Virus record (IMG/VR): IMGVR_UViG_3300037067_027643
Span: 64,001-128,000 of that record
DNA from: a virus
Lineage: Duplodnaviria > Caudoviricetes
Length of the DNA stretch: 64,000 nucleotides
Direction: 5' to 3' (one strand)
In this document: piece by piece, positions 4,831-37,932 of the stretch
Layout: each line of letters starts with the position of its first letter
Numbering within the stretch: position 1 is the stretch's first letter
Program-made: the position numbers and the translations under genes
Notes under the pieces: model-generated
The model's input: the letters and a program-made list of their open reading frames with translations, nothing else
Databases searched by the model: none
Told to the model about the DNA's origin: nothing

Positions 4831-6185
4831 TTAATCAATATTAAATTATTTTTTGGTCTACTACACGCTGTATAAAGTATTCTATTTCTTTCTTCAATTT
4901 TTGAATTATACATAATATCCCAACCCATTACTATAGTATTATTATATGTACTACCTTGGCTCTTGTGGGCGCTAATCGAATAATTATATTTTGTTGAGGC
5001 AAAATGATTCATATAAGCATAATATTTAATCCATTCTGTTCTTGCTCTTTCAGTTCCTTGTTTTTCTTTTAATGCTTTATTTTTTAATCCGTTTAAATAA
5101 GAATTGTAAACTACTTCACTATCTTCATGTAATATATGAATGTGATTAATTTTAATATTTCCTTGAATATCATACGATTTAACAACTGTATCATAATATT
5201 TTACTCTATCTTTTCCAAAATTTATACATTCTTCATCTATTTCAAAATCTTCTACCTCTACTTCTTCATTGGTATGTAAAATAATATGGTCGCCTTCCAT
5301 TACATTGCTATCCATTATCAATCGTTCTCCTCTCATTATTTTATTAGAAGCTTTATCTCCGTATAGCATATATCTTACTAATTCATTATATATATTAACA
5401 GTTTCATTTCTCCAAGCTATTATTTTTATATAATCACTATCCTGTTTATATTCATTACTTGTAAAATAATTATATATTGTTTCTATAATTTTATCTTCAT
5501 CTTTTGTTTTATTAAAAAATGTAATATTATTGTTCTTATCTACGTCTGGAATAGTTAATTCATTTATAAGATTTTTATTATTTAAGTTACTTCTGATATC
5601 AAAAGTTAATTTAATAATTGGGTTATCACTACATTGTCTTACGATTTTGGTCAATTTTTCTACTTGTATATTGTATTTCTTTTGTTTGTCCGGTAATAAT
5701 GGGATACTATCTAATTTATTTATTGGTGGAATCTGTGCTGGATCACCTACAAATATTATTTTTAAAGTTGGATATTTTAATAAATAATCAAATATTTCAT
5801 CATGTAGCATACTTATTTCATCCAGCACGAGATACTGATATTTGTCAACTTTACAAGGTAAATGTTTATCTCTTTTAAAATGTTGCTTACCAAAACCATC
5901 AATATGTTCTTTTAACCCTAGAGCACTATGGATTGTAGAGAATATTAAATTTGGATGTGTTATTTTGCAAGCTTCTCGAAATAAAACTTGAGTACTTTTG
6001 TGAGTCGGACCAGTGATTCCAATCATTTTATTTCTTGTAACCGATAATAAATATTTCACAAAATCTACAATTAAAAATGTTTTTCCACTACCCGCATACC
6101 CTCCAATTAAAAACATATTTTGGGTAGGATCGTTAATAAATTTTATTAATTCTTCTTTTATCGTTTGTTGATCTTTTGTCAGCAT
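4827..6185 (-). CDS. dda: Dda-like SF1B DNA helicase
   Basis: GYAGSGKT Walker A, LDEISM, GDPAQIPP, HKSQGSTY, YTACSRP. Confidence 0.85.
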   Translation of the reverse strand: MLTKDQQTIKEELIKFINDPTQNMFLIGGYAGSGKTFLIVDFVKYLLSVTRNKMIGITGPTHKSTQVLFREACKITHPNLIFSTIHSALGLKEHIDGFGKQHFKRDKHLPCKVDKYQYLVLDEISMLHDEIFDYLLKYPTLKIIFVGDPAQIPPINKLDSIPLLPDKQKKYNIQVEKLTKIVRQCSDNPIIKLTFDIRSNLNNKNLINELTIPDVDKNNNITFFNKTKDEDKIIETIYNYFTSNEYKQDSDYIKIIAWRNETVNIYNELVRYMLYGDKASNKIMRGERLIMDSNVMEGDHIILHTNEEVEVEDFEIDEECINFGKDRVKYYDTVVKSYDIQGNIKINHIHILHEDSEVVYNSYLNGLKNKALKEKQGTERARTEWIKYYAYMNHFASTKYNYSISAHKSQGSTYNNTIVMGWDIMYNSKIEERNRILYTACSRPKNNLILIK

Positions 6186-19604: not shown

Positions 19605-20901
19605 TCATAATTCACAAAATTTATTAATATTTCTCAAACTTGTTAATTCTGTAGTTAATTGTTTCTTTGTATTTGGTGTTTCTAATACCGCTTTATTTGT
19701 ATCTACATTAAATGAAACTAATTTCCAAACATATCCACGATTCTTAGCCCATGATACATGGTATTTTCGTCCAATTATATATTCTTTTGGTATATCTTTT
19801 AATTCTGTCATATTTTATCCAAAATTAATCATACCTTCTGGATATTTCTTCCAAAATTTAACCAATTGTTTTATTGCTTCTTGTTTTAAAATATTTCTAT
19901 CAGTTTTATCAAAACAAGTAGAAGTATAATAAATATTATCATCATTATCTTCTAAATATTTTAACGTTTCTTCTAACGAAAATAAAATATCATCTGGATA
20001 ATCTCCTATACGAAATACATCATGTGGTAAATCGTTAGAAGAAATATAAAATATTTGTTTTTTACAATTATATGAAGTTACATTATAATTTGATGTATGA
20101 TACTTATTATATATAGCAATCTCACATAATCCTTTTTTAACAATTTTTAATTGTCTTTCAACAATAGCTTTTTGTTTAATTCCATAATCGATAGTCCATT
20201 CTGGATATGTTTCTAATAATTCTAAATCTATTTTATCTCTATGATTTATCATATTATCATAAAACTTAATAGATCTTTTATATGTATTAATAACATTATT
20301 TCTAACTTTATCTTTGCTTATATTATACGGTTTAAAAAACCAAGTATGACATCCCATATTATTTATTTTTAATTATTATTTAAACGGATTAAACCCACTA
20401 TATCTCAAATCATTTACATTTGCTATTCTACTATCATCTACTATAGTTTCTTCATTTGTTACTATTACAGAATCTTCTACATCACACCAATATTCTTCTG
20501 GTAAATTTTTATCAATATTAAACTTTTGATATAAAAATTCAGATATAGGTTCTTGTTTAACTCCATTTTCAAAATATACAACCTCTCTATAATCTCCAAT
20601 TTTAAAAATATTTTCTTTTAAAAATGGAGTATAAAACCTTTTTACATACTGACCTATGTACTTAATGTATTGTCTGTAATTAGTTTTGTTATTCATATTT
20701 ATTTTAATGATTAAATGACTCTTTATATGTATGACCACAATTTTTACATTTATATTCTACTCTTGTTATATATAAATTATAATTTCTTAATTTTCTACTA
20801 AACTGTTTAATTTCATTTGATAAAGAAACAGTTTCACGACTAATTTCTTTAAATTGACAAAATCCAAAGAAACATAAAATATTTTTAATTAATTGTATCA
20901 T
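19605..20901 (-). other. Four small hypothetical genes (19605-19811, 19815-20357, 20376-20738, 20704-20901)
   Basis: Tandem ORFs downstream of rtcB. Confidence 0.55.
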
Positions 20902-22283
20902 AAATTTAATATTTTTTTATTATTTTTACGTTCTTCTCTTTCCTGTTTCATTTTCTTATTAGCTTTTCTATCTTTCCATGATTCTCCTTCACTACTGTCT
21001 TTGATATTCAATATAGGTTTTACTCTATCAATTATTTCAATAGTAGGTTCCAATAATAGTTCAATTAATTCACTGTCTTTATAAGATTGTGGGCTTTCAT
21101 CTAATGTACCTTTACAAACAGAAGTTGAATAAATCCCTTCCATAGACTTTTTAAAATCATCTAAATTTACTGTTTCTTTTGCTTTAGTTCTACTCATTAT
21201 TCTACCGGCTCCATGAGCACAACTGTAATTCCAATCTGGATTAGATTTACCGACAGCGATAACCATTCCATCTCTCATATTAAATGGTATAATCATCTTT
21301 TTATCTTTGTAAGATGCTATTGCTCCTTTACGAATTATAAAATCATTAAAATCGACATAATTGTGAATTGACTCTATTACTTCATCAAATTTAGTAATAT
21401 TTAAAACTTCTTGAATAATATCTAACATTGTTTTTCTATTCCAAACTGCATACTGTTGAGCAAATATCATATCAAATAAATAGTTTATTAAATATTCATC
21501 TTGTAAGTATTCTCGATCTATTCCTATACCAAACTTTTTTTTAAGTGAATCAATTTTATTTGGTATCTCTTTCTTATCAACTGTATTTAATACAATTTCA
21601 TTTAATCGTTTACTGTAATTATTAGAAGATCCATTCATTTGTTTTTTAGCTTGATTTATCCAATATTCTGCTACCTTTAAACCAAAGTTTCTACTTCCAG
21701 AATGAATGGTTACATAATAATCTGTAAGTGCTTGATTTACACCTATTTCAAGAAAGTGATTGCCTCCACCCATTGACCCAATACTATTAAAAAACTTCTT
21801 GATATTCATTTTAATATCTTTTAATTTTTTAATTAACCATTGTTCACTATATAATGGAGCTACATAATTTGTATTATATTTAACATTAAATGCTTTTACA
21901 AACTTATCTGCTATTATCTGTACATCATTGTATGGAATATCAGTAAAAACAGGACTTTTATGTTCATTAAATCCCATTGGAATTCTATGTCTGATTTCCT
22001 TATTTATTTTTTCTAAATCTAAATTAGAAGCATTTGGAAACTTTCCACTAATGAGACCACAGCCAATATCAACGCCTATATAGCTGGGTGTTAAGTAGTT
22101 ACCTAATTCCATTGTAAATCCAATACAAATTCCTTTACCAAAATGAGCATCCGGTTGAATTCTTACTTTAAGTCCTTTTGATATTGGAGAATTGATAATC
22201 GAATATATTTGAGAAATTACTTCCTCCTCTACATTATCAATGAATATTTTTGCTGTTGTATATTTCCCTGTTAATTCTATCAT
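20898..22283 (-). CDS. rtcB: RtcB family RNA 2',3'-cyclic phosphate ligase (tRNA repair)
   Basis: PDAHFGKG, GVDIGCG, GGGNHFLE, IHSGSRNFG, HNY, RKGA, HGAGR, DESP..YK. Confidence 0.95.
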   Translation of the reverse strand: MIELTGKYTTAKIFIDNVEEEVISQIYSIINSPISKGLKVRIQPDAHFGKGICIGFTMELGNYLTPSYIGVDIGCGLISGKFPNASNLDLEKINKEIRHRIPMGFNEHKSPVFTDIPYNDVQIIADKFVKAFNVKYNTNYVAPLYSEQWLIKKLKDIKMNIKKFFNSIGSMGGGNHFLEIGVNQALTDYYVTIHSGSRNFGLKVAEYWINQAKKQMNGSSNNYSKRLNEIVLNTVDKKEIPNKIDSLKKKFGIGIDREYLQDEYLINYLFDMIFAQQYAVWNRKTMLDIIQEVLNITKFDEVIESIHNYVDFNDFIIRKGAIASYKDKKMIIPFNMRDGMVIAVGKSNPDWNYSCAHGAGRIMSRTKAKETVNLDDFKKSMEGIYSTSVCKGTLDESPQSYKDSELIELLLEPTIEIIDRVKPILNIKDSSEGESWKDRKANKKMKQEREERKNNKKILNL

Positions 22284-25169: not shown

Positions 25170-25199
25170 TTTATTTTTTAAGGAGGAAAAATAAAGTAG

Positions 25200-25271
25200 A
25201 GCCCATTTCTGGAATTGAACCAGAATATATAGTTTTGCGGACTACTGACTAAACCATTCATCCAAATGGGC
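25200..25271 (-). tRNA. tRNA-Cys(GCA)
   Basis: Cloverleaf; anticodon arm GTAGT-CCGCAAA-ACTAT; U73; C at position 33. Confidence 0.85.
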
Positions 25272-25278
25272 ATTTTTG

Positions 25279-25365
25279 CATACGTTGTAGGATTTGGACC
25301 CACGAGGAAGTATAAACTTCAATAGTTTTGGAGACTATCGCCTTCGACCACTTGGCTAAACGTAT
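25279..25365 (-). tRNA. tRNA-Trp(CCA) with long variable arm
   Basis: ATAGT-CTCCAAA-ACTAT; A1-U72, G73; V-arm GAAGT-TTAT-ACTTC. Confidence 0.85.
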
Positions 25366-25378
25366 GTATATCAATTAG

Positions 25379-25459
25379 TTGCGAGAGAGGGACTTGAACC
25401 CTCGAGGCTTACGCAATGGGATATGAGCCCATCCTGATACCAACTTCAGTCATCTCGCA
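25379..25459 (-). tRNA. tRNA-Met(CAT), initiator-like, enlarged variable arm
   Basis: ATGGG-CTCATAT-CCCAT with three consecutive G-C pairs; 12-nt V-region. Confidence 0.8.
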
Positions 25460-25465
25460 ATATAT

Positions 25466-26563
25466 TTATATTTCTAAAATTACATCTTTATGATCTAAAA
25501 TTAATTTGAAATTATATCCATGTTCTTTATAAGCTTTTAATTTATCTTTCATGTTTTGTTCATTGTATGTATAATTACTTTTTATTTCTACAATTAAATT
25601 TGTGTCTGGTAAATAAAAATCGGGTATTGCTGTTCTTTGTTTTAATAATTGTGTATCCCAATATGAAATTCTTAATTTTTCAACTTCATAATTAATTTTA
25701 TCTTTATCTAATTGGTTAGCATATTCTAATTCATACCCACTTCTATAAAATATTTGTTTATTATTCCAAGTAGTATGATATCCATGTTTATAATGTGAAT
25801 TTTTATTAATTACATTTAATTTTCCATGAATTATAGCATTTCCAGTACTTTCAGAAAAACATCGTAATTTAATATTAAAATAATTTATCACTTTATTAAA
25901 ATTTGATAAAGAATATCCATATTTCTCTGACATATCTGAAGTACTTAATTTTTCATCATAATAGTCTTCATATAGCATAATTCGAATTCGTTCAAATTCT
26001 TCGTAATAATTTTTGGTTCCTAATACATTTTTATCAAATCCAAAGTATTTTATTAAATTTGGAATTATTTGATATCGTTTACAAATTTCTGGATGTTTAC
26101 ATTGACCTTTTATTGATCCACACATTTTACAATCAACATTATTAAATCTTTTTCTTTGATATTCTAATTTACAAATATTACATAAACATTTTTTAATACT
26201 ATTTCTTTTATTAACAATAATATCGCTTCCGCATTTAACACATTTAGCTTCTTTTGTTTCTAAATTATTATCGTTTTTTGTACTATATTTATGAGAACAA
26301 TACGAAGAACAAAATCTACCACTACCATACGAACCATCTATTTCTATACCACATTCTTCACAATATAATTGCTTTATTTCAATTATTTTATTAGCATTAA
26401 TTATTGCCTTTTTCTTCTCTTTTGTTATTCTACATAATTCTATTTGTTCTTTTGTTATTATTCTACTTCTACTACATGATTTTGAACAAAATTTTCCAGT
26501 TCCATAAGAACCATTATGTTCATGTCCACATTTTTCACAAAATTTTTTATTTTCCATATCCAA
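25466..26563 (-). CDS. Putative free-standing homing endonuclease (Cys-rich Zn-finger repeats plus PD-(D/E)XK/TnsA-like domain) inside tRNA array
   Basis: CxxC...YGxGxFCSxxC repeats; YRSGYE...PDFYLP...IVEIK. Confidence 0.75.
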   Translation of the reverse strand: MDMENKKFCEKCGHEHNGSYGTGKFCSKSCSRSRIITKEQIELCRITKEKKKAIINANKIIEIKQLYCEECGIEIDGSYGSGRFCSSYCSHKYSTKNDNNLETKEAKCVKCGSDIIVNKRNSIKKCLCNICKLEYQRKRFNNVDCKMCGSIKGQCKHPEICKRYQIIPNLIKYFGFDKNVLGTKNYYEEFERIRIMLYEDYYDEKLSTSDMSEKYGYSLSNFNKVINYFNIKLRCFSESTGNAIIHGKLNVINKNSHYKHGYHTTWNNKQIFYRSGYELEYANQLDKDKINYEVEKLRISYWDTQLLKQRTAIPDFYLPDTNLIVEIKSNYTYNEQNMKDKLKAYKEHGYNFKLILDHKDVILEI

Positions 26564-26621
26564 ACTATTTTACATTTTATATATAAATAGTAAATAGTTT
26601 GAAAATAAATTCCGCAATATT

Positions 26622-26630
26622 TCAAAGAAC
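26622..26630 (-). promoter_or_regulatory. boxA-like element
   Basis: GTTCTTTGA between tRNA-Thr and the endonuclease gene. Confidence 0.6.
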
Positions 26631-26651
26631 AATTTTAATTTTATAAATTTG

Positions 26652-26724
26652 AGCCAATAGAAGGAATCCAACCCTCAACCCTTCCGGTACAAACGGATTG
26701 CTCTAGCAATTGAGCTATACTGGC
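26652..26724 (-). tRNA. tRNA-Thr(TGT)
   Basis: TCCG-TTTGTAC-CGGA anticodon arm. Confidence 0.85.
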
Positions 26725-26741
26725 ATTACATTATTATAGGG

Positions 26742-26818
26742 CGGTCTATAAGGAATTTGAATCCTTCTGAACATTCCGAGTGACAGTCGGACAGCCACAC
26801 CTAGCAGCTCCATAGACC
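26742..26818 (-). tRNA. tRNA-Asp(GTC)
   Basis: TCCGA-CTGTCAC-TCGGA; G73. Confidence 0.9.
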
Positions 26819-26842
26819 AATTATATATTATATTAATTTTAG

Positions 26843-26915
26843 TGAGACTATGAGGAATCAAACCCCAATCCTATGAACCGTACTCATAAATTCTATTCAA
26901 TTGAACTATAGTCCC
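26843..26915 (-). tRNA. tRNA-Arg(ACG)
   Basis: TATGA-GTACGGT-TCATA. Confidence 0.85.
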
Positions 26916-26930
26916 AAATTAATAATAAAG

Positions 26931-27003
26931 TATTCGGTACGGGAGTTGAACCCGTATGTCAAGATTGAAGGTCTTGAATCCTTACCAATTAGATGAACCG
27001 AAC
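26931..27003 (-). tRNA. tRNA-Glu(TTC)
   Basis: CAAGA-CCTTCAA-TCTTG; C at position 33. Confidence 0.85.
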
Positions 27004-27019
27004 AAATGTCTTGTATATG

Positions 27020-27092
27020 TAGCCAAAGATGGAATTGAACCATCGCCCTGTATCTTATAAGGATACTGCTCTTACCACTGAGCTACTTGGCT
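27020..27092 (-). tRNA. tRNA-Ile(TAT)
   Basis: GTATC-CTTATAA-GATAC; A73. Confidence 0.85.
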
Positions 27093-27103
27093 ATATTTAA
27101 TAG

Positions 27104-27178
27104 TGGAATCTATGGTATTCGAAACCATCTGCTGTTCTCAGTGCAAATGAGATGACCACCCTAGCAGTCCCAGACCCC
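27104..27178 (-). tRNA. tRNA-Ala(TGC)
   Basis: TCTCA-TTTGCAC-TGAGA; G3-U70. Confidence 0.9.
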
Positions 27179-27189
27179 GTTTATATTAG

Positions 27190-27264
27190 TTGGTGTAATT
27201 GGATTTGAACCAATGACCTCAATCTTATCAGGATTGTCGTCTGACCGGGCTGACATATACACCA
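27190..27264 (-). tRNA. tRNA-Ile(GAT)
   Basis: CAATC-CTGATAA-GATTG. Confidence 0.9.
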
Positions 27265-27274
27265 ATATAATTAG

Positions 27275-27346
27275 TGGAACTAGATGGATTTGGACCACCG
27301 ACCACTTCCTCTTCAGGGAAGCACTCTACCACTGAGTTATAGTTCC
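27275..27346 (-). tRNA. tRNA-Phe(GAA)
   Basis: CTTCC-CTGAAGA-GGAAG. Confidence 0.9.
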
Positions 27347-27356
27347 ATTGTATTTG

Positions 27357-27430
27357 TAGGAATACCAGGATTCAAACCTGGGATCTAGTGGATGTAAACC
27401 AATCGCTTTAATCAACTAAGCTATATTCCT
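27357..27430 (-). tRNA. tRNA-Val(TAC)
   Basis: ATTGG-TTTACAT-CCACT. Confidence 0.85.
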
Positions 27431-27440
27431 ATGTTATCAG

Positions 27441-27513
27441 CGACTCTAATACGGAATGATCGTATAACCTACCGGTTAACAGCCGGTTGCTCTACCAATT
27501 GAGCTATAGAGTC
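27441..27513 (-). tRNA. tRNA-Asn(GTT)
   Basis: ACCGG-CTGTTAA-CCGGT; atypical T-loop ATCATTC. Confidence 0.85.
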
Positions 27514-27522
27514 ATATATTAG

Positions 27523-27594
27523 TGCCTTCGAATCGACTTGAACGATTACTCTTACATCTTAAAAGGATGAGATTTTACATTAAACTACGAAGGC
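27523..27594 (-). tRNA. tRNA-Lys(TTT)
   Basis: CATC-CTTTTAA-GATG. Confidence 0.85.
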
Positions 27595-27599
27595 AATTG

Positions 27600-27682
27600 T
27601 GGAGGAAGAGTGATTTGAACACCCATAGCTTTTTGCGACGGATTTACAGTCCGCTGATTTCTACCCACTTACCATTTCCTCC
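27600..27682 (-). tRNA. tRNA-Tyr(GTA)
   Basis: GCGGA-CTGTAAA-TCCGT; long V-arm. Confidence 0.9.
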
Positions 27683-27702
27683 ATTATATATTATTATCTT
27701 TG

Positions 27703-27774
27703 AGCGAGATAACGGGTTCAAACCGTTGACAAAGCATTGGAAGTGCCTCATGTTATCAACTACACCAATCTCGC
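27703..27774 (-). tRNA. tRNA-Gly(TCC)
   Basis: AGGCA-CTTCCAA-TGCTT; U73. Confidence 0.9.
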
Positions 27775-27796
27775 TTAATTCATTTATATCAATACG

Positions 27797-27805
27797 TCAA
27801 AGAAC
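27797..27805 (-). promoter_or_regulatory. boxA-like element
   Basis: GTTCTTTGA between terminator and first tRNA of array 1. Confidence 0.65.
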
Positions 27806-27820
27806 ATTGTTTTTAATTCA

Positions 27821-27859
27821 AATAAAAAACCCAACTAGTTTTTTAATTTTCTGGTTGGG
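27821..27859 (-). terminator. Attenuator terminator of tRNA array 1
   Basis: CCCAACCAG-N12-CTAGTTGGG (one C-A mismatch) followed by TTTTTTATT. Confidence 0.75.
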
Positions 27860-27896
27860 TTTTATATATTTTATTATAATATATTTTTTAATAAAC

Positions 27897-28052
27897 TCAC
27901 CAACCAACATCTTTTGCTTCTTCTCCAAAACGATAATCATTATTTGTTTTTGCTATAAAAATACAACCGTCCACAAACATCATATTTTTATCTATAATGC
28001 TATTGTTCCAACATGTATTATTAATGACTGTATTATTTCGCTTTGTTTTCAT
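27897..28052 (-). CDS. Leader peptide 1 (51 aa) of tRNA array 1
   Basis: MKTKRNNTVINNTCWNNSIIDKNMMFVDGCIFIAKTNNDYRFGEEAKDVGW*; its 3' end TTGGTTGG is complementary to the terminator 5' arm. Confidence 0.75.
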   Translation of the reverse strand: MKTKRNNTVINNTCWNNSIIDKNMMFVDGCIFIAKTNNDYRFGEEAKDVGW

Positions 28053-28133
28053 TTTATTTTTTGTTATTACTTCTTTTTATTTTATATAAATAGTTAAAAA
28101 TAAATTAAAAATTTTCAATTTCAAATTATTTTA

Positions 28134-28165
28134 CAAAATTAAGTAAATTTTTTCACTCTACCAAA
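28134..28165 (-). promoter_or_regulatory. Bacteroidota sigma70-type promoter upstream of leader 1 (also ACTATTTATA motif at 28085-28094)
   Basis: TTTG-N20-TAATTTTG. Confidence 0.75.
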
Positions 28166-28232
28166 TTTATTTTTAATTATTTTAATATACAACATTATTT
28201 TCAAATAAACAAATAAAATTTAATTGTAATAT

Positions 28233-28997
28233 TTATTTATCCCAAATATTATTAAATTTTGAATAATCAATATCTTCGTATGGATATTTATCATTAAAAT
28301 ATTCCAATTTTACTATATCAAATGTATTTAATAATTTTTTATCATCTATCAATAAAATTTTTATATTTGTTTCATGAATACATTTCCACATTTTACATTT
28401 ATCATTTTCACTCATCCAACCTTTTACTTCAATATATACATCAAAATCAGGCAAATAAAAATCTGGCGTATAAGAACGAGATTTATCAAATTTGACTCTT
28501 ATTCTATCCCAATTTATTTTTAATTCATTTAATCGTTCCGCTACTGTTTTTTCCCATTTTCCTTGAACATTAATTATTTTATATCCATTATATATCGAAT
28601 ACCACAATATATTATTTCCTTTATTTTCTTCTAAAAATTTTATCCTATGTTCTGACATTTTCTTTCTTGATTCAATTGTATGGTTTTTATTATTCCAATA
28701 TGGTATTATTTCGCCATTTTCAAATTTCTGTTTAAGATTAATACTAGTATTTTTAAGTCTATCATCATTTTCTTTTGTTAATCCCTTATTCCATTTCATA
28801 TTTTCTTTTGATTCTTCGGGAAAGTCTAAAAATTTTTCTTTACCCGATTTTATTTTTCCAGAACTATATGATTTTTTTAAACCATTACTATTTTTTAACC
28901 TATTTGCTGGACATTGATTAAAATGCTCTGAACAACAATATTTACCATTTTTTAATTGATATTTTCCTTCTTGACCGCAATTATAAGCACACAACAT
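28233..28997 (-). CDS. Putative homing endonuclease (NUMOD3-like segment plus PD-(D/E)XK domain) between the tRNA arrays
   Basis: N-terminal CxxxCG...CC..C; WNKGLTKE; HTIESRKKMS; YTPDFYLP...YIEVKG. Confidence 0.75.
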   Translation of the reverse strand: MLCAYNCGQEGKYQLKNGKYCCSEHFNQCPANRLKNSNGLKKSYSSGKIKSGKEKFLDFPEESKENMKWNKGLTKENDDRLKNTSINLKQKFENGEIIPYWNNKNHTIESRKKMSEHRIKFLEENKGNNILWYSIYNGYKIINVQGKWEKTVAERLNELKINWDRIRVKFDKSRSYTPDFYLPDFDVYIEVKGWMSENDKCKMWKCIHETNIKILLIDDKKLLNTFDIVKLEYFNDKYPYEDIDYSKFNNIWDK

Positions 28998-29046
28998 AAT
29001 TTTTACTATTTGTTTACTTATAAATAGTAAAAATTATTATTTTTCG

Positions 29047-29120
29047 TATCCACAGAAGGAGTCGAACCCTCAACCATTGGGGTAGAATCCCAATATTCTA
29101 TCCAGTTGAACTATGTGGAC
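29047..29120 (-). tRNA. tRNA-Arg(TCT)
   Basis: TTGGG-ATTCTAC-CCCAA. Confidence 0.9.
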
Positions 29121-29127
29121 ATTTTGG

Positions 29128-29201
29128 GGTGGCACTCGAGGATTGAACTCAAATCAACAGATTCACAGTCTGCCCGCTTAACCATTTAGCGTAATGTCAC
29201 C
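29128..29201 (-). tRNA. tRNA-His(GTG)
   Basis: GCAGA-CTGTGAA-TCTGT; G-1/C73. Confidence 0.9.
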
Positions 29202-29216
29202 ATTTAAAAATTATAT

Positions 29217-29225
29217 TCAAAGAAC
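29217..29225 (-). promoter_or_regulatory. boxA-like element
   Basis: GTTCTTTGA between tRNA-Pro and tRNA-His. Confidence 0.6.
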
Positions 29226-29237
29226 TATTGTTATCTG

Positions 29238-29314
29238 TCTAGGCGGTGCGATTCGAACGCACGTTATGTCGTGTTTCCAAAACACGCTAGTTTAGCCATC
29301 TGCTGTACGCCTAG
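29238..29314 (-). tRNA. tRNA-Pro(TGG)
   Basis: CGTGT-TTTGGAA-ACACG; C1-G72, A73. Confidence 0.9.
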
Positions 29315-29320
29315 TTATTG

Positions 29321-29406
29321 CGGAAAAATAAGGATTCGAACCTTAGGGACTGTTACATCCACGTCATTAGCAGTGACGCACAATAGACCAACTCTGTCAT
29401 TTTTCC
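29321..29406 (-). tRNA. tRNA-Ser(GCT)
   Basis: CGTCA-CTGCTAA-TGACG; long V-arm; G73. Confidence 0.9.
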
Positions 29407-29413
29407 ATTATAG

Positions 29414-29487
29414 CAGCCAAAACTGGGCTCGAACCAATACTCCGACAGTCAAAGTGTCGTATGCTTTACCGATTACATTATTTGGCT
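29414..29487 (-). tRNA. tRNA-Gln(TTG)
   Basis: CGACA-CTTTGAC-TGTCG. Confidence 0.9.
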
Positions 29488-29494
29488 ATAAAAG

Positions 29495-29581
29495 CGGAAG
29501 GTTAGGGACTCAAACCCCAGATACGGTATTAGCGTATTACTAATTTTCAAGATTAGCTCTTCGTTCAGCCAGACACCTTCC
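29495..29581 (-). tRNA. tRNA-Ser(TGA)
   Basis: CTAAT-CTTGAAA-ATTAG; long V-arm; G73. Confidence 0.85.
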
Positions 29582-29606
29582 ATTTATTATTTACAATACA
29601 TTATTT

Positions 29607-29615
29607 TCAAAGAAC
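29607..29615 (-). promoter_or_regulatory. boxA-like element
   Basis: AGTTCTTTGAAAA between terminator and first tRNA of array 2. Confidence 0.65.
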
Positions 29616-29623
29616 TTATATTC

Positions 29624-29659
29624 AATAAAAAACCCTATTTACTTTTGATTTAAACAGGG
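29624..29659 (-). terminator. Attenuator terminator of tRNA array 2
   Basis: CCCTGTTTA-N9-TAAATAGGG (one G-U) followed by TTTTTTATT. Confidence 0.8.
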
Positions 29660-29688
29660 GTTGTAATGTTTTTATATATTATACTATA

Positions 29689-29808
29689 TCATCTATAAAT
29701 ATCACAATACACCTGTTCCCATTGACTATGTCTTGGTTGTAAGCACGATGGTCTACTATTAATTGAGGGTTGATGTTGATGATTATATGTAACGATATTT
29801 ATTTTCAT
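29689..29808 (-). CDS. Leader peptide 2 (39 aa) of tRNA array 2
   Basis: MKINIVTYNHQHQPSINSRPSCLQPRHSQWEQVYCDIYR*; ACTATTTATA motif upstream at 29836-29845. Confidence 0.8.
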   Translation of the reverse strand: MKINIVTYNHQHQPSINSRPSCLQPRHSQWEQVYCDIYR

Positions 29809-29870
29809 TATTTTTGTTTTATTCTTTTAATTTTATATAAATAGTAAAAAAATTTTAAAAAGTTATTTTG

Positions 29871-36255: not shown

Positions 36256-37932
36256 TTATACGTAGTTTAAGTGGGTTACCACTAGCTTTCCGAAAAATTC
36301 GGGGCGAACTATTTTTTTTGCATATCTCGTAAGTACACCTTTTCTCGGCGTGAAGTTAGTACTATCATATACTAATGGTGTCATAATCAATGGAACATAA
36401 GGACAAAAAACGGCACCGCACTCTAAGAACTGACTACCTCTAAATCCCATCAATATGATATTTTCTTTCATATAAGGATTTTTGTAAACAGTAAAGCGAT
36501 TATTCAATAAACCTACTTTTTGTACTCCCATTGCAAATTGCATTTGGTTTCCATCAGTATCAGCTGCATAACCAGGAATTGATTCGATTATAGTAGCAAT
36601 ATCAGGAGAGCAAACCATAAAGTTAGCACCACCACGCATTGTTTTTTGGTGAATCTTGTTGCTGATTTTTTGCAATTTAGTACCTAAAGTTTGGAACCAA
36701 GTCTGTTGAGTATATTTAAGAGCGTATCCACTTTGTAAATCTTGACTTGTAAAGTTAGATTCACCATTAGTAGTTTGTCCTGTGTGTACAGTTCCTATTT
36801 TAGCTGACCAATAATCAGTTGTGATAGCGTTAAGAATCAACATATCTAAGATTTCTAAGTCAATTTCCATTGAAATATATTCACTCAACATACTTGTTAA
36901 TTCTGCTTCAGCATCAATTGAATGGTAAGCGTTTAAGTCCTGTGCAAATTCAGGAGTCCATACTGCTTTTAACTTTTTAGTTTTAGCAACAATTGGTTCA
37001 CTTCTCAATGATACGTTTATTTCTGGGATATCTAATGCGTTAGCACCTACTGATGTACCAGGAGCGTATTTATCGGGACCAGTTGTTCCACTTCCCCATG
37101 CAGGATCACCTTGAGCTTGGAAATCACCTCTATCGTAAGCTAATGGAGCTTTGCTATATTTTACCAATACTGTTGAAGCACTACCACTACACATAAAGGT
37201 TACATAACGAGTTGAAGCTGCTCCAGCACTTGTTACAGGCATTGTATTAGCTGGGTAATAAGCTTCGATACCACTACCACTAATATAGAAACTTCTTACA
37301 CCTTCTACATCGTGATTGGTTGTATTCATATCTACAGTTACTCTTTTCATTTCATCTGCTGCTACAGAAGCACTTAATGGAGCTGAATAGTTACAATCTG
37401 CCCAAGAAGCTGAAGTAATAGTTGTTGATAAACTTGCTGTATAGTCGTTAGTACTATATCCAAATCTACCTGCACCATATAAACCTTGTTCTGCATCAAA
37501 TGTTTGGTTAGTAATACCAAATACTGAATTGTTTTGTTCGTAAGTAGTATTAGTAGTATTGAAACCTGGTTGATCAGTTCCATATTTGAAATCTAAGTAG
37601 AATACAAGTCCACTAGGTAAGTTCATTGGTTGTACTGATACGAAGTCTTTAGCTGCTATTTCTGCAAAGATACGTCTTACTAATGGTAAAGCTACTCCTG
37701 ACCATTCTTCTGCACCTGTTGCTGTTCCTGTTTGTGATACTTCACTGATTAACTGTCTTGCTTGGTTTTCTAACAAAATAGCCATTCCATCTCTTTCGTA
37801 ATCACTTTTAAGACCGTCTAACAGTCCTGTTTTTTCCCATTTCTGGTTCAGAGCAATACTATCATTACGCATATTTTTATACGTAGATTTTATTTGTCCC
37901 TCTCCTATCAAATCACTAAATTTTTTATTCAT
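36256..37932 (-). CDS. Major capsid protein (T4 gp23-like)
   Basis: LLENQA, LPLVRR, VSVQPMNLPSGLVFYL, KLKAVWTPEFAQDLNAYHSIDAEAEL, CPYVPL, FTPRKGVLTRY. Confidence 0.95.
   Translation of the reverse strand: MNKKFSDLIGEGQIKSTYKNMRNDSIALNQKWEKTGLLDGLKSDYERDGMAILLENQARQLISEVSQTGTATGAEEWSGVALPLVRRIFAEIAAKDFVSVQPMNLPSGLVFYLDFKYGTDQPGFNTTNTTYEQNNSVFGITNQTFDAEQGLYGAGRFGYSTNDYTASLSTTITSASWADCNYSAPLSASVAADEMKRVTVDMNTTNHDVEGVRSFYISGSGIEAYYPANTMPVTSAGAASTRYVTFMCSGSASTVLVKYSKAPLAYDRGDFQAQGDPAWGSGTTGPDKYAPGTSVGANALDIPEINVSLRSEPIVAKTKKLKAVWTPEFAQDLNAYHSIDAEAELTSMLSEYISMEIDLEILDMLILNAITTDYWSAKIGTVHTGQTTNGESNFTSQDLQSGYALKYTQQTWFQTLGTKLQKISNKIHQKTMRGGANFMVCSPDIATIIESIPGYAADTDGNQMQFAMGVQKVGLLNNRFTVYKNPYMKENIILMGFRGSQFLECGAVFCPYVPLIMTPLVYDSTNFTPRKGVLTRYAKKIVRPEFFGKLVVTHLNYV

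Follow-up and report, generated by a model that had tools for sequence, protein, structure and literature searches.

Transcription of tRNA array 1, a block of 16 tRNA genes in a large phage, is probably gated by a ribosome-mediated attenuator in which translation of a short leader peptide decides, in the style of the trp operon, whether RNA polymerase reaches the tRNAs. The window (the whole stretch of DNA that was analyzed, 64,000 nucleotides) comprises bases 64001-128000 of a virus record of 285,744 bp at 25% G+C, and the record was rated 100% complete by CheckV, an estimator of viral-genome completeness. A T4-type major head protein is encoded at 36256-37932 of the window. The codon composition of the leader, the alternative pairings open to its RNA, the layout of the cassette and the co-variation of leaders with array content in relatives are observations on the DNA itself. 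From them we infer that the leader ORF is translated, that the terminator works, in which direction the switch turns and what its physiological trigger might be.

ARAGORN places 22 tRNAs in the phage genome, every one of them in two minus-strand arrays within the window. Rfam confirms 18 of the 22, with the Ala, Asp, Pro and Ser(UGA) tRNAs falling below its threshold, and detects no tRNA in the rest of the genome. Array 1 has 16 tRNAs of 15 amino-acid specificities, 14 of the 16 confirmed by Rfam and the Ala and Asp tRNAs called by ARAGORN alone. Its first part (26651-27774, minus strand) reads Gly, Tyr, Lys, Asn, Val, Phe, Ile(GAU), Ala, Ile(UAU), Glu, Arg(ACG), Asp and Thr, its last part (25199-25459, minus strand) reads Met, Trp and Cys, and no terminator-like site was seen between the two. 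The Trp (88 nt, 25278-25365), Met (82 nt, 25378-25459) and Asp (81 nt, 26739-26819) tRNAs are unusually long and apparently carry extended variable arms. The second array (Ser, Gln, Ser, Pro, His, Arg(UCU)) is preceded by a paralogous cassette 2 (29582-29845, minus strand) made of a promoter box (29845), a 39-codon leader rich in His, Gln, Pro, Ser and Arg (AGA), a terminator and a boxA-like element. The whole tRNA set (25199-29581) reads all amino acids but Leu and is near the minimum for decoding, with U34 for each four-codon box, ACG and UCU for Arg, and GAU and UAU for Ile. ARAGORN at a very low threshold made 163 calls that were only noise and were discarded. An alternative genetic code was rejected in favor of the standard one, as the 180 long ORFs stop at TAA (146), TGA (19) or TAG (15) and there is no suppressor tRNA. 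In related giant phages, a CTA-anticodon (TAG-reading) tRNA accompanied by up to four Gln tRNAs (L110:1961-2032; L104:1515-1849) suggests TAG recoding there, of which the window's own genome gives no sign.

Array 1 is interrupted by an endonuclease-like gene of 365 aa (25466-26563, minus strand) with its own promoter box (26591), and a second endonuclease-like gene (28233-28997, minus strand) lies between the tRNA arrays. Both have Cys-rich N-termini. The first shares ~71% nucleotide identity with Prevotella Lak megaphages, a similarity by which it is probably a mobile homing-type element. That Met, Trp and Cys codons are kept in leader 1 suggests that the 16 tRNAs formed one unit before the insertion. 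The endonuclease gene's promoter may now also express the Met, Trp and Cys tRNAs, independently of leader 1.

Leader 1 lies between a phage promoter box and a predicted intrinsic terminator, with all elements on the minus strand. The box, ACTATTTATATAAAAT (28094-28079), is followed after 26 nt by the first ATG, which starts leader ORF 1 (28052-27897; 51 sense codons and a TGA at 27899-27897) and has AAA as the second codon. Both leaders have an A-rich start and no Shine-Dalgarno sequence, a pattern shared with the phage's other genes, of which only 32 of 180 have a Shine-Dalgarno-like core. The genome has ~25-30 copies of the box, one of them before leader 2 (29845) and another before the endonuclease gene (26591), and nearly all others precede normal genes of 88-1211 aa. 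Outside the window, at ~133729-133860 (plus strand) of G000:C1, a box without a gene is followed by ~80 nt leading to a GAGTGGGA...TCCCACTC hairpin and a T run, and this may be a small RNA. Downstream of leader 1, the spacer contains a small AU-only hairpin (27883-27863), and the predicted terminator (27863-27820) consists of a 5' arm AAAACCCAACCAG (27863-27851), a 12-nt loop, a 3' arm CUAGUUGGGUUUU (27838-27826) and a U tract UUUUUUAUUU (U6, ending at 27820). It ends 45 nt before tRNA-Gly, the first tRNA of array 1, which starts at 27774. Its predicted folding energy is about -9.4 (core) to -12.0 kcal/mol, and with its 12-nt loop and internal C/A mismatch the terminator may be leaky. A simple sigma-70/terminator scan was uninformative in AT-rich DNA and misses the 12-nt-loop terminator. 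Some 30 terminator-like sites occur genome-wide, and only the two before the tRNA arrays follow a promoter box and a short ORF; the order of promoter box, short ORF and terminator was found nowhere else in the 286-kb genome.

Fifteen nucleotides past the U tract lies a boxA-like element, GTTCTTTGA (27805-27797). The genome has 5 copies in 286 kb, 4 of them inside the tRNA arrays on the transcribed strand (27797-27805, 29607-29615, 29217-29225 and 26622-26630, all minus). Each attenuator is followed by one copy, a further copy lies mid-array, and the last precedes the endonuclease gene. The extended form is GYTCTTTGAAATAWTG, and GTTCTTTGA(A)ATAWTG is enriched in arrays. A related phage has GCTCTTTGAAATACT where the window phage has GTTCTTTGA. 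The element resembles the rrn boxA (GCTCTTTAA-type), a likeness of sequence only.

Leader 1 is built almost entirely of codons that array 1 can read. A first-pass annotation of the region had counted 50 of 51 codons from the classes served by array 1 with a lone AGC Ser, and a recount reproduced these figures, placed the exception at codon 18 and gave 49 of 50 when the start is set aside. The classes are G, Y, K, N, V, F, I, A, E, R(CGN), D, T, M, W and C, all 15 are present, and the ARAGORN specificities agree exactly with the statement that these are the amino acids of the 16 downstream tRNAs. Likewise borne out was the occurrence of both Ile classes (ATT and ATA) and of Trp, Cys and Met at least twice each (2, 2 and 3 times, with Met including the start); Arg is encoded by CGA and CGT. 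The annotation had proposed computing the probability of so many allowed codons under genome codon usage, in which the allowed classes amount to 74.7% of codons. The binomial probability of at least 49/50 is 8.2e-6, far beyond chance. Moreover, leader 1 ranks 1st of 629 among genome ATG-ORFs of 30-90 aa, where the runner-up is an antisense junk frame, and when a 50-codon frame was slid along the ORFs of 100 aa or more, 49/50 was attained at 0 of 59,069 positions. The presence of 15/15 classes among allowed codons only has a probability of 0.057.

Per codon, the composition evidence is weaker than that for leader 2, as the annotation had cautioned, because the allowed set spans about 75% of codon space. 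Leader 2 has 18/38 codons in the classes of its own array (S, Q, P, H and AGR-Arg; P = 1.6e-5; rank 2/629). As to the features singled out as informative for leader 1, the absence of Leu and the choice of Arg codons, there are zero Leu codons (P = 0.014), and the Arg codons are CGN in 2/2 cases (P ~0.05 with a CGN share of 23%). Arg codons are split between the leaders, with three AGA in leader 2 versus CGA and CGT in leader 1. The avoidance of Leu would reflect the lack of a tRNA-Leu among the phage's own tRNAs, and CGN would be used because array 1 has the ACG anticodon, with AGA left to leader 2. The final GTT GGT TGG is set by pairing, which makes half of the Trp codons (1 of 2) and most of the Gly codons (2 of 3) structural and not sensing. 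Decoding of GGT, GTC and GTT by the phage UCC and UAC tRNAs requires four-way U34 wobble. The leader 1 peptide has no homologs except itself. We note that both leaders close with TGA (27897-27899 and 29689-29691), the stop of only 19 of 180 long ORFs, and that TGA also ends the Gln and K/S/F/W/H leaders of relatives.

The end of leader 1 is complementary to the terminator. The antiterminator (A) arm, TTGGTTGG (27907-27900, minus strand), lies in the codons GTT GGT TGG, abuts the TGA and is complementary to CCAACCAG in the terminator 5' arm, with which it forms 8 bp (one G-U). The pairing of the tail GTT GGT TGG TGA with the terminator, as originally claimed, thus survived examination, and an equal or better complement arose in 2.4% of trials when codons and spacer were shuffled (P = 0.024). 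In folds, the helix extends over a bulged UGA as GUUU:AAAC, with the GUUU at 27896-27893, and so the whole terminator 5' arm is sequestered and the small AU-only hairpin enclosed. The antiterminator is the minimum-energy structure of nascent RNA that lacks the 3' arm. When the RNA is masked to 11 nt beyond the stop, as by a ribosome at the stop codon, the antiterminator is lost and the 5' arm is free. Because the A arm takes up the final three sense codons, it is covered once a ribosome has reached the stop; the proposed geometry, with a terminating ribosome sitting on the antiterminator arm, therefore holds. Folding energies are similar, -9.7 kcal/mol for the antiterminator versus -12.0 for the terminator, and when the full-length RNA is folded the terminator has the lowest energy at nearly every ribosome position. 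Thus, the choice between them must be kinetic, as in classical attenuators. Within leader 1 we saw no upstream complement of the A arm, no pause hairpin and no anti-antiterminator of the trp 1:2 type. Untranslated leader 1 RNA folds into the antiterminator and, with no upstream partner for the A arm, should be read through.

No diverged ortholog of leader 1 was present in the collections searched. Back-translated IMG/VR scans with the leader peptide and the neighboring 133-aa protein gave no match, and a search of 5.8 billion proteins with the leader 1 peptide returned only itself. Two other contigs contain leader 1, at 100% and 99.87% identity. Near-identical DNA is present in groundwater and landfill metagenomes, and the landfill-run contigs over the region are identical there and so provide no natural variation. 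Among public sequencing runs, none of those listed as containing this DNA is an RNA run. A scan of metagenome contigs for RtcB found nothing above 64% identity and no arrays beside RtcB, 80 loci gathered by major capsid protein had no tRNA within 10 kb, and the only blastn matches in GenBank phages were to individual tRNAs and to the endonuclease genes.

Relatives with arrays of other compositions were reached through RtcB, at 56-60% identity, and whatever precedes each array head was tabulated mechanically. Conservation in relatives had been named as a check on the leader, and the equivalent test in these phages favored the reading: leader composition shifts with the tRNAs of the array, and a change in the antiterminator arm is accompanied by one in the terminator arms. 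Arrays of four and of two Gln tRNAs are preceded by MNNNISNMIQQQQQTYV (QQQQQ) and a predicted multi-hairpin attenuator with two terminators, and the leader stop codon abuts the chain of alternative hairpins. When folded with a ribosome at the stop, the Gln cassette forms two tandem terminators; with a ribosome on the Gln run, an antiterminator replaces the first of them. Glu-Asp-Asn-Asn-Cys-Ile-Ile-Tyr arrays (3 records) are preceded by MNNMNNIYRIYRNCNINYNMEEICINMNNDYINDDENIVRRTG or close variants, a leader rich in N/I/Y/C/E/D with 35/42 codons in the classes of its own array (P = 6e-9), and AAGAACTGG right before its stop pairs with the terminator 5' arm. Lys-Phe-Trp-Ser-His arrays (2 records) have leaders rich in K/S/F/W/H (P = 2-4e-5). 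In a matrix of leaders against arrays for five cassette families, the best match was always the leader's own array, and complementarity between the ORF tail and the terminator 5' arm was significant in each relative family (P = 0.001-0.02).

The two K/S/F/W/H cassettes, L107 and L087, differ by the same compensatory change in the A arm and in both arms of the terminator, with GTTTGGA/TCCAAAC in one and GTTCGGA/TCCGAAC in the other. Moreover, the conserved AAAAACCAAG.TT.GGA is read in different frames in L107 and L087, and the upstream control tract holds frame through a 9-nt indel. A frame-independent tail and a frame-keeping head indicate that constraint acts on the tail at the RNA level and on the head through its codons, as an attenuator predicts. 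Other relatives contribute observations of their own. G+C-rich stretches that resemble tRNAs and have acceptor and T-arm motifs lie between the attenuator and the first tRNA called (L106:2980-3115; L103 ~5290-5470, minus strand), and default ARAGORN misses them; a large insertion is present in one, and one gives a Leu(UAG) call at low threshold only. L109 carries a further cassette (~5850-5940, minus strand), in which MYRNLYINEEMCNNEIINNIDDTSQLTEK is followed by a terminator with the 5' arm CAGTCAA, complementary to the TTGACTG right before the stop, and then by an 83-aa ORF and a tRNA-Met (5922-5994).

How leader 1 would control array 1 can be described stepwise. A genome profile search found no match to multisubunit RNA polymerase (PF00562) or sigma-70 region 2 (PF04542), and none to single-subunit T7-like RNA polymerase (PF00940), the last being a weak blank since the control matched in no genome. 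With no phage RNA polymerase found, intrinsic terminators of the host enzyme are relevant. Host RNA polymerase would start at the phage promoter box, and a ribosome would at once translate the 51-codon leader. If all classes are decoded fast, the ribosome would reach the UGA and cover UUGGUUGG while polymerase makes the terminator; the hairpin would then form and transcription would end before tRNA-Gly. A slow TGA stop would hold the ribosome over the antiterminator arm. Slow decoding in any one of the 15 classes would make the ribosome lag, UUGGUUGG and GUUU would pair with AAAC-CCAACCAG, the antiterminator so formed would block the terminator, and polymerase would enter the 16 tRNA genes. 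The tRNAs of array 1 would then resupply exactly those decoders that had limited translation of the leader.

Why decoding would slow is a separate question, and host tRNAs could be scarce, cleaved or out-competed. Because a ribosome is blind to whether a tRNA is missing or uncharged, the physiological trigger is something that we infer. An RtcB-type tRNA splicing/repair ligase (20898-22283, minus strand; PHROG E = 8e-116) is encoded 3 kb downstream of array 1, which fits tRNA damage being a stress for the phage. Published work describes phage tRNAs as counter-measures to tRNA-cleaving defenses (PMC11555353, PMC12409363). Together with the nearby RtcB, that work favors tRNA depletion as the most sensible signal.

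The same attenuator could instead report amino-acid supply, aminoacylation or general translation capacity, as in starvation or host shut-off, with the array switched on as a by-product or as an infection timing device. A stalled ribosome cannot distinguish missing from uncharged tRNA, and charging is what classical attenuators such as the trp and his leaders sense. Moreover, untranslated RNA forms the antiterminator, so the gate would open as well whenever translation is blocked globally. Extra tRNA, however, gives no relief from amino-acid starvation, and the match of codon class to anticodon (CGN versus AGA, both Ile classes, no Leu) needs a product that relieves the stall. RtcB 3 kb downstream also points to tRNA damage as the stress, and we consider a supply signal unlikely. 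Perhaps, leader and terminator only insulate the array from upstream transcription, and GTTCTTTGA, acting as a promoter element or as a processing signal, independently drives or shapes expression of the tRNAs. The 9-mer is enriched in arrays (4/5 genome copies) and also occurs mid-array and before the endonuclease gene, as such a role might have it, but it is closer to the rrn boxA than to any promoter consensus, and downstream of it no -10-like partner is spaced workably from where the tRNA begins. Insulation, moreover, explains neither the codon matching nor the antiterminator, and a role of this kind seems distinctly improbable.

Finally, leader 1 might be just another small gene of the phage, or an ORF that arose by chance, with an ordinary operon-end terminator behind it, its composition match a coincidence and the tRNAs expressed by constitutive read-through or from another start. 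Small orphan ORFs abound in phage genomes and the peptide has no other homologs; 75% of codon space is allowed, and the promoter box is general to many genes. Coincidence, however, would have to account for leader probabilities of 8e-6 and 1.6e-5, each top-ranked in its own class, for complementarity located at the stop codon, and for a design that recurs in relatives with compositions matched to different arrays. Nor does the genome hold another cassette of promoter, short ORF and terminator, and the 45 nt from terminator to tRNA-Gly contain no convincing promoter. We therefore give coincidence very little credence and conclude that attenuation of array 1 by translation of leader 1 is the probable reading.

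Attenuation of array 1 may be one case of something broader. We speculate, with the chances about evenly balanced, that large phages run a decoding-speed homeostat in which a sampler ORF before each tRNA block measures how fast codons are read and opens the block on demand, for example, when tRNAs are depleted by host anticodon nucleases or by host shut-off. Leader 1 would be an extreme of that design, one kinetic sensor integrating 15 amino-acid classes, and leaders 1 and 2 together would cover the near-complete minimal decoding set, all but Leu. If leader 1 acts as proposed, phage tRNA arrays would gain a regulatory logic of supply on demand per codon class, and the grouping of big-phage tRNAs into particular blocks would be explained. 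The arrays would also be linked to the current picture of phage tRNAs as counter-measures to tRNA-cleaving host defenses (PMC11555353, PMC12409363). The decoding-speed sensor would be directly testable, and compact, programmable "codon-speed" switches would become available to synthetic biology.

Leader-peptide attenuation is textbook knowledge for amino-acid operons and one synthetase operon. Full-text literature searches, with most subscription journals outside their coverage, returned no account of leader-peptide control of tRNA genes. Leader 1 shares its logic and parts with trpL, hisL and pheL, and the Gln cassette of the relatives is of essentially the same type, but leader 1 has no run of control codons and would integrate delay over the whole ORF. 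The ilvGMEDA (Ile/Leu/Val) and thr (Thr/Ile) leaders of enterobacterial amino-acid operons are likewise short, translated and supplied with codons for several amino acids; in them ribosome position sets terminator versus antiterminator, and slow decoding leads to read-through. Those leaders, however, regulate biosynthetic enzymes and have their codons in runs, whereas leader 1 would regulate phage-encoded tRNAs and samples 15 classes once to a few times each, with three elements (A arm, 5' arm and 3' arm) and no evident 1:2 pause or anti-antiterminator. T-box riboswitches also couple tRNA status to read-through of translation-related genes, but they bind uncharged tRNA directly and without translation, and an Rfam cmscan at gathering thresholds found no T-box or other riboswitch in the window, only tRNAs. 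GYTCTTTGAA, placed after each attenuator and within untranslated arrays as boxA is in rRNA operons, resembles the rrn-type boxA of processive antitermination (NusB/NusE) in sequence only. The pheST attenuator with its pheM leader is chromosomal and serves the synthetase of one amino acid (phenylalanyl-tRNA synthetase) and not tRNA genes, but in it, as proposed for array 1, a component of the decoding apparatus is attenuated and the product relieves the stall.
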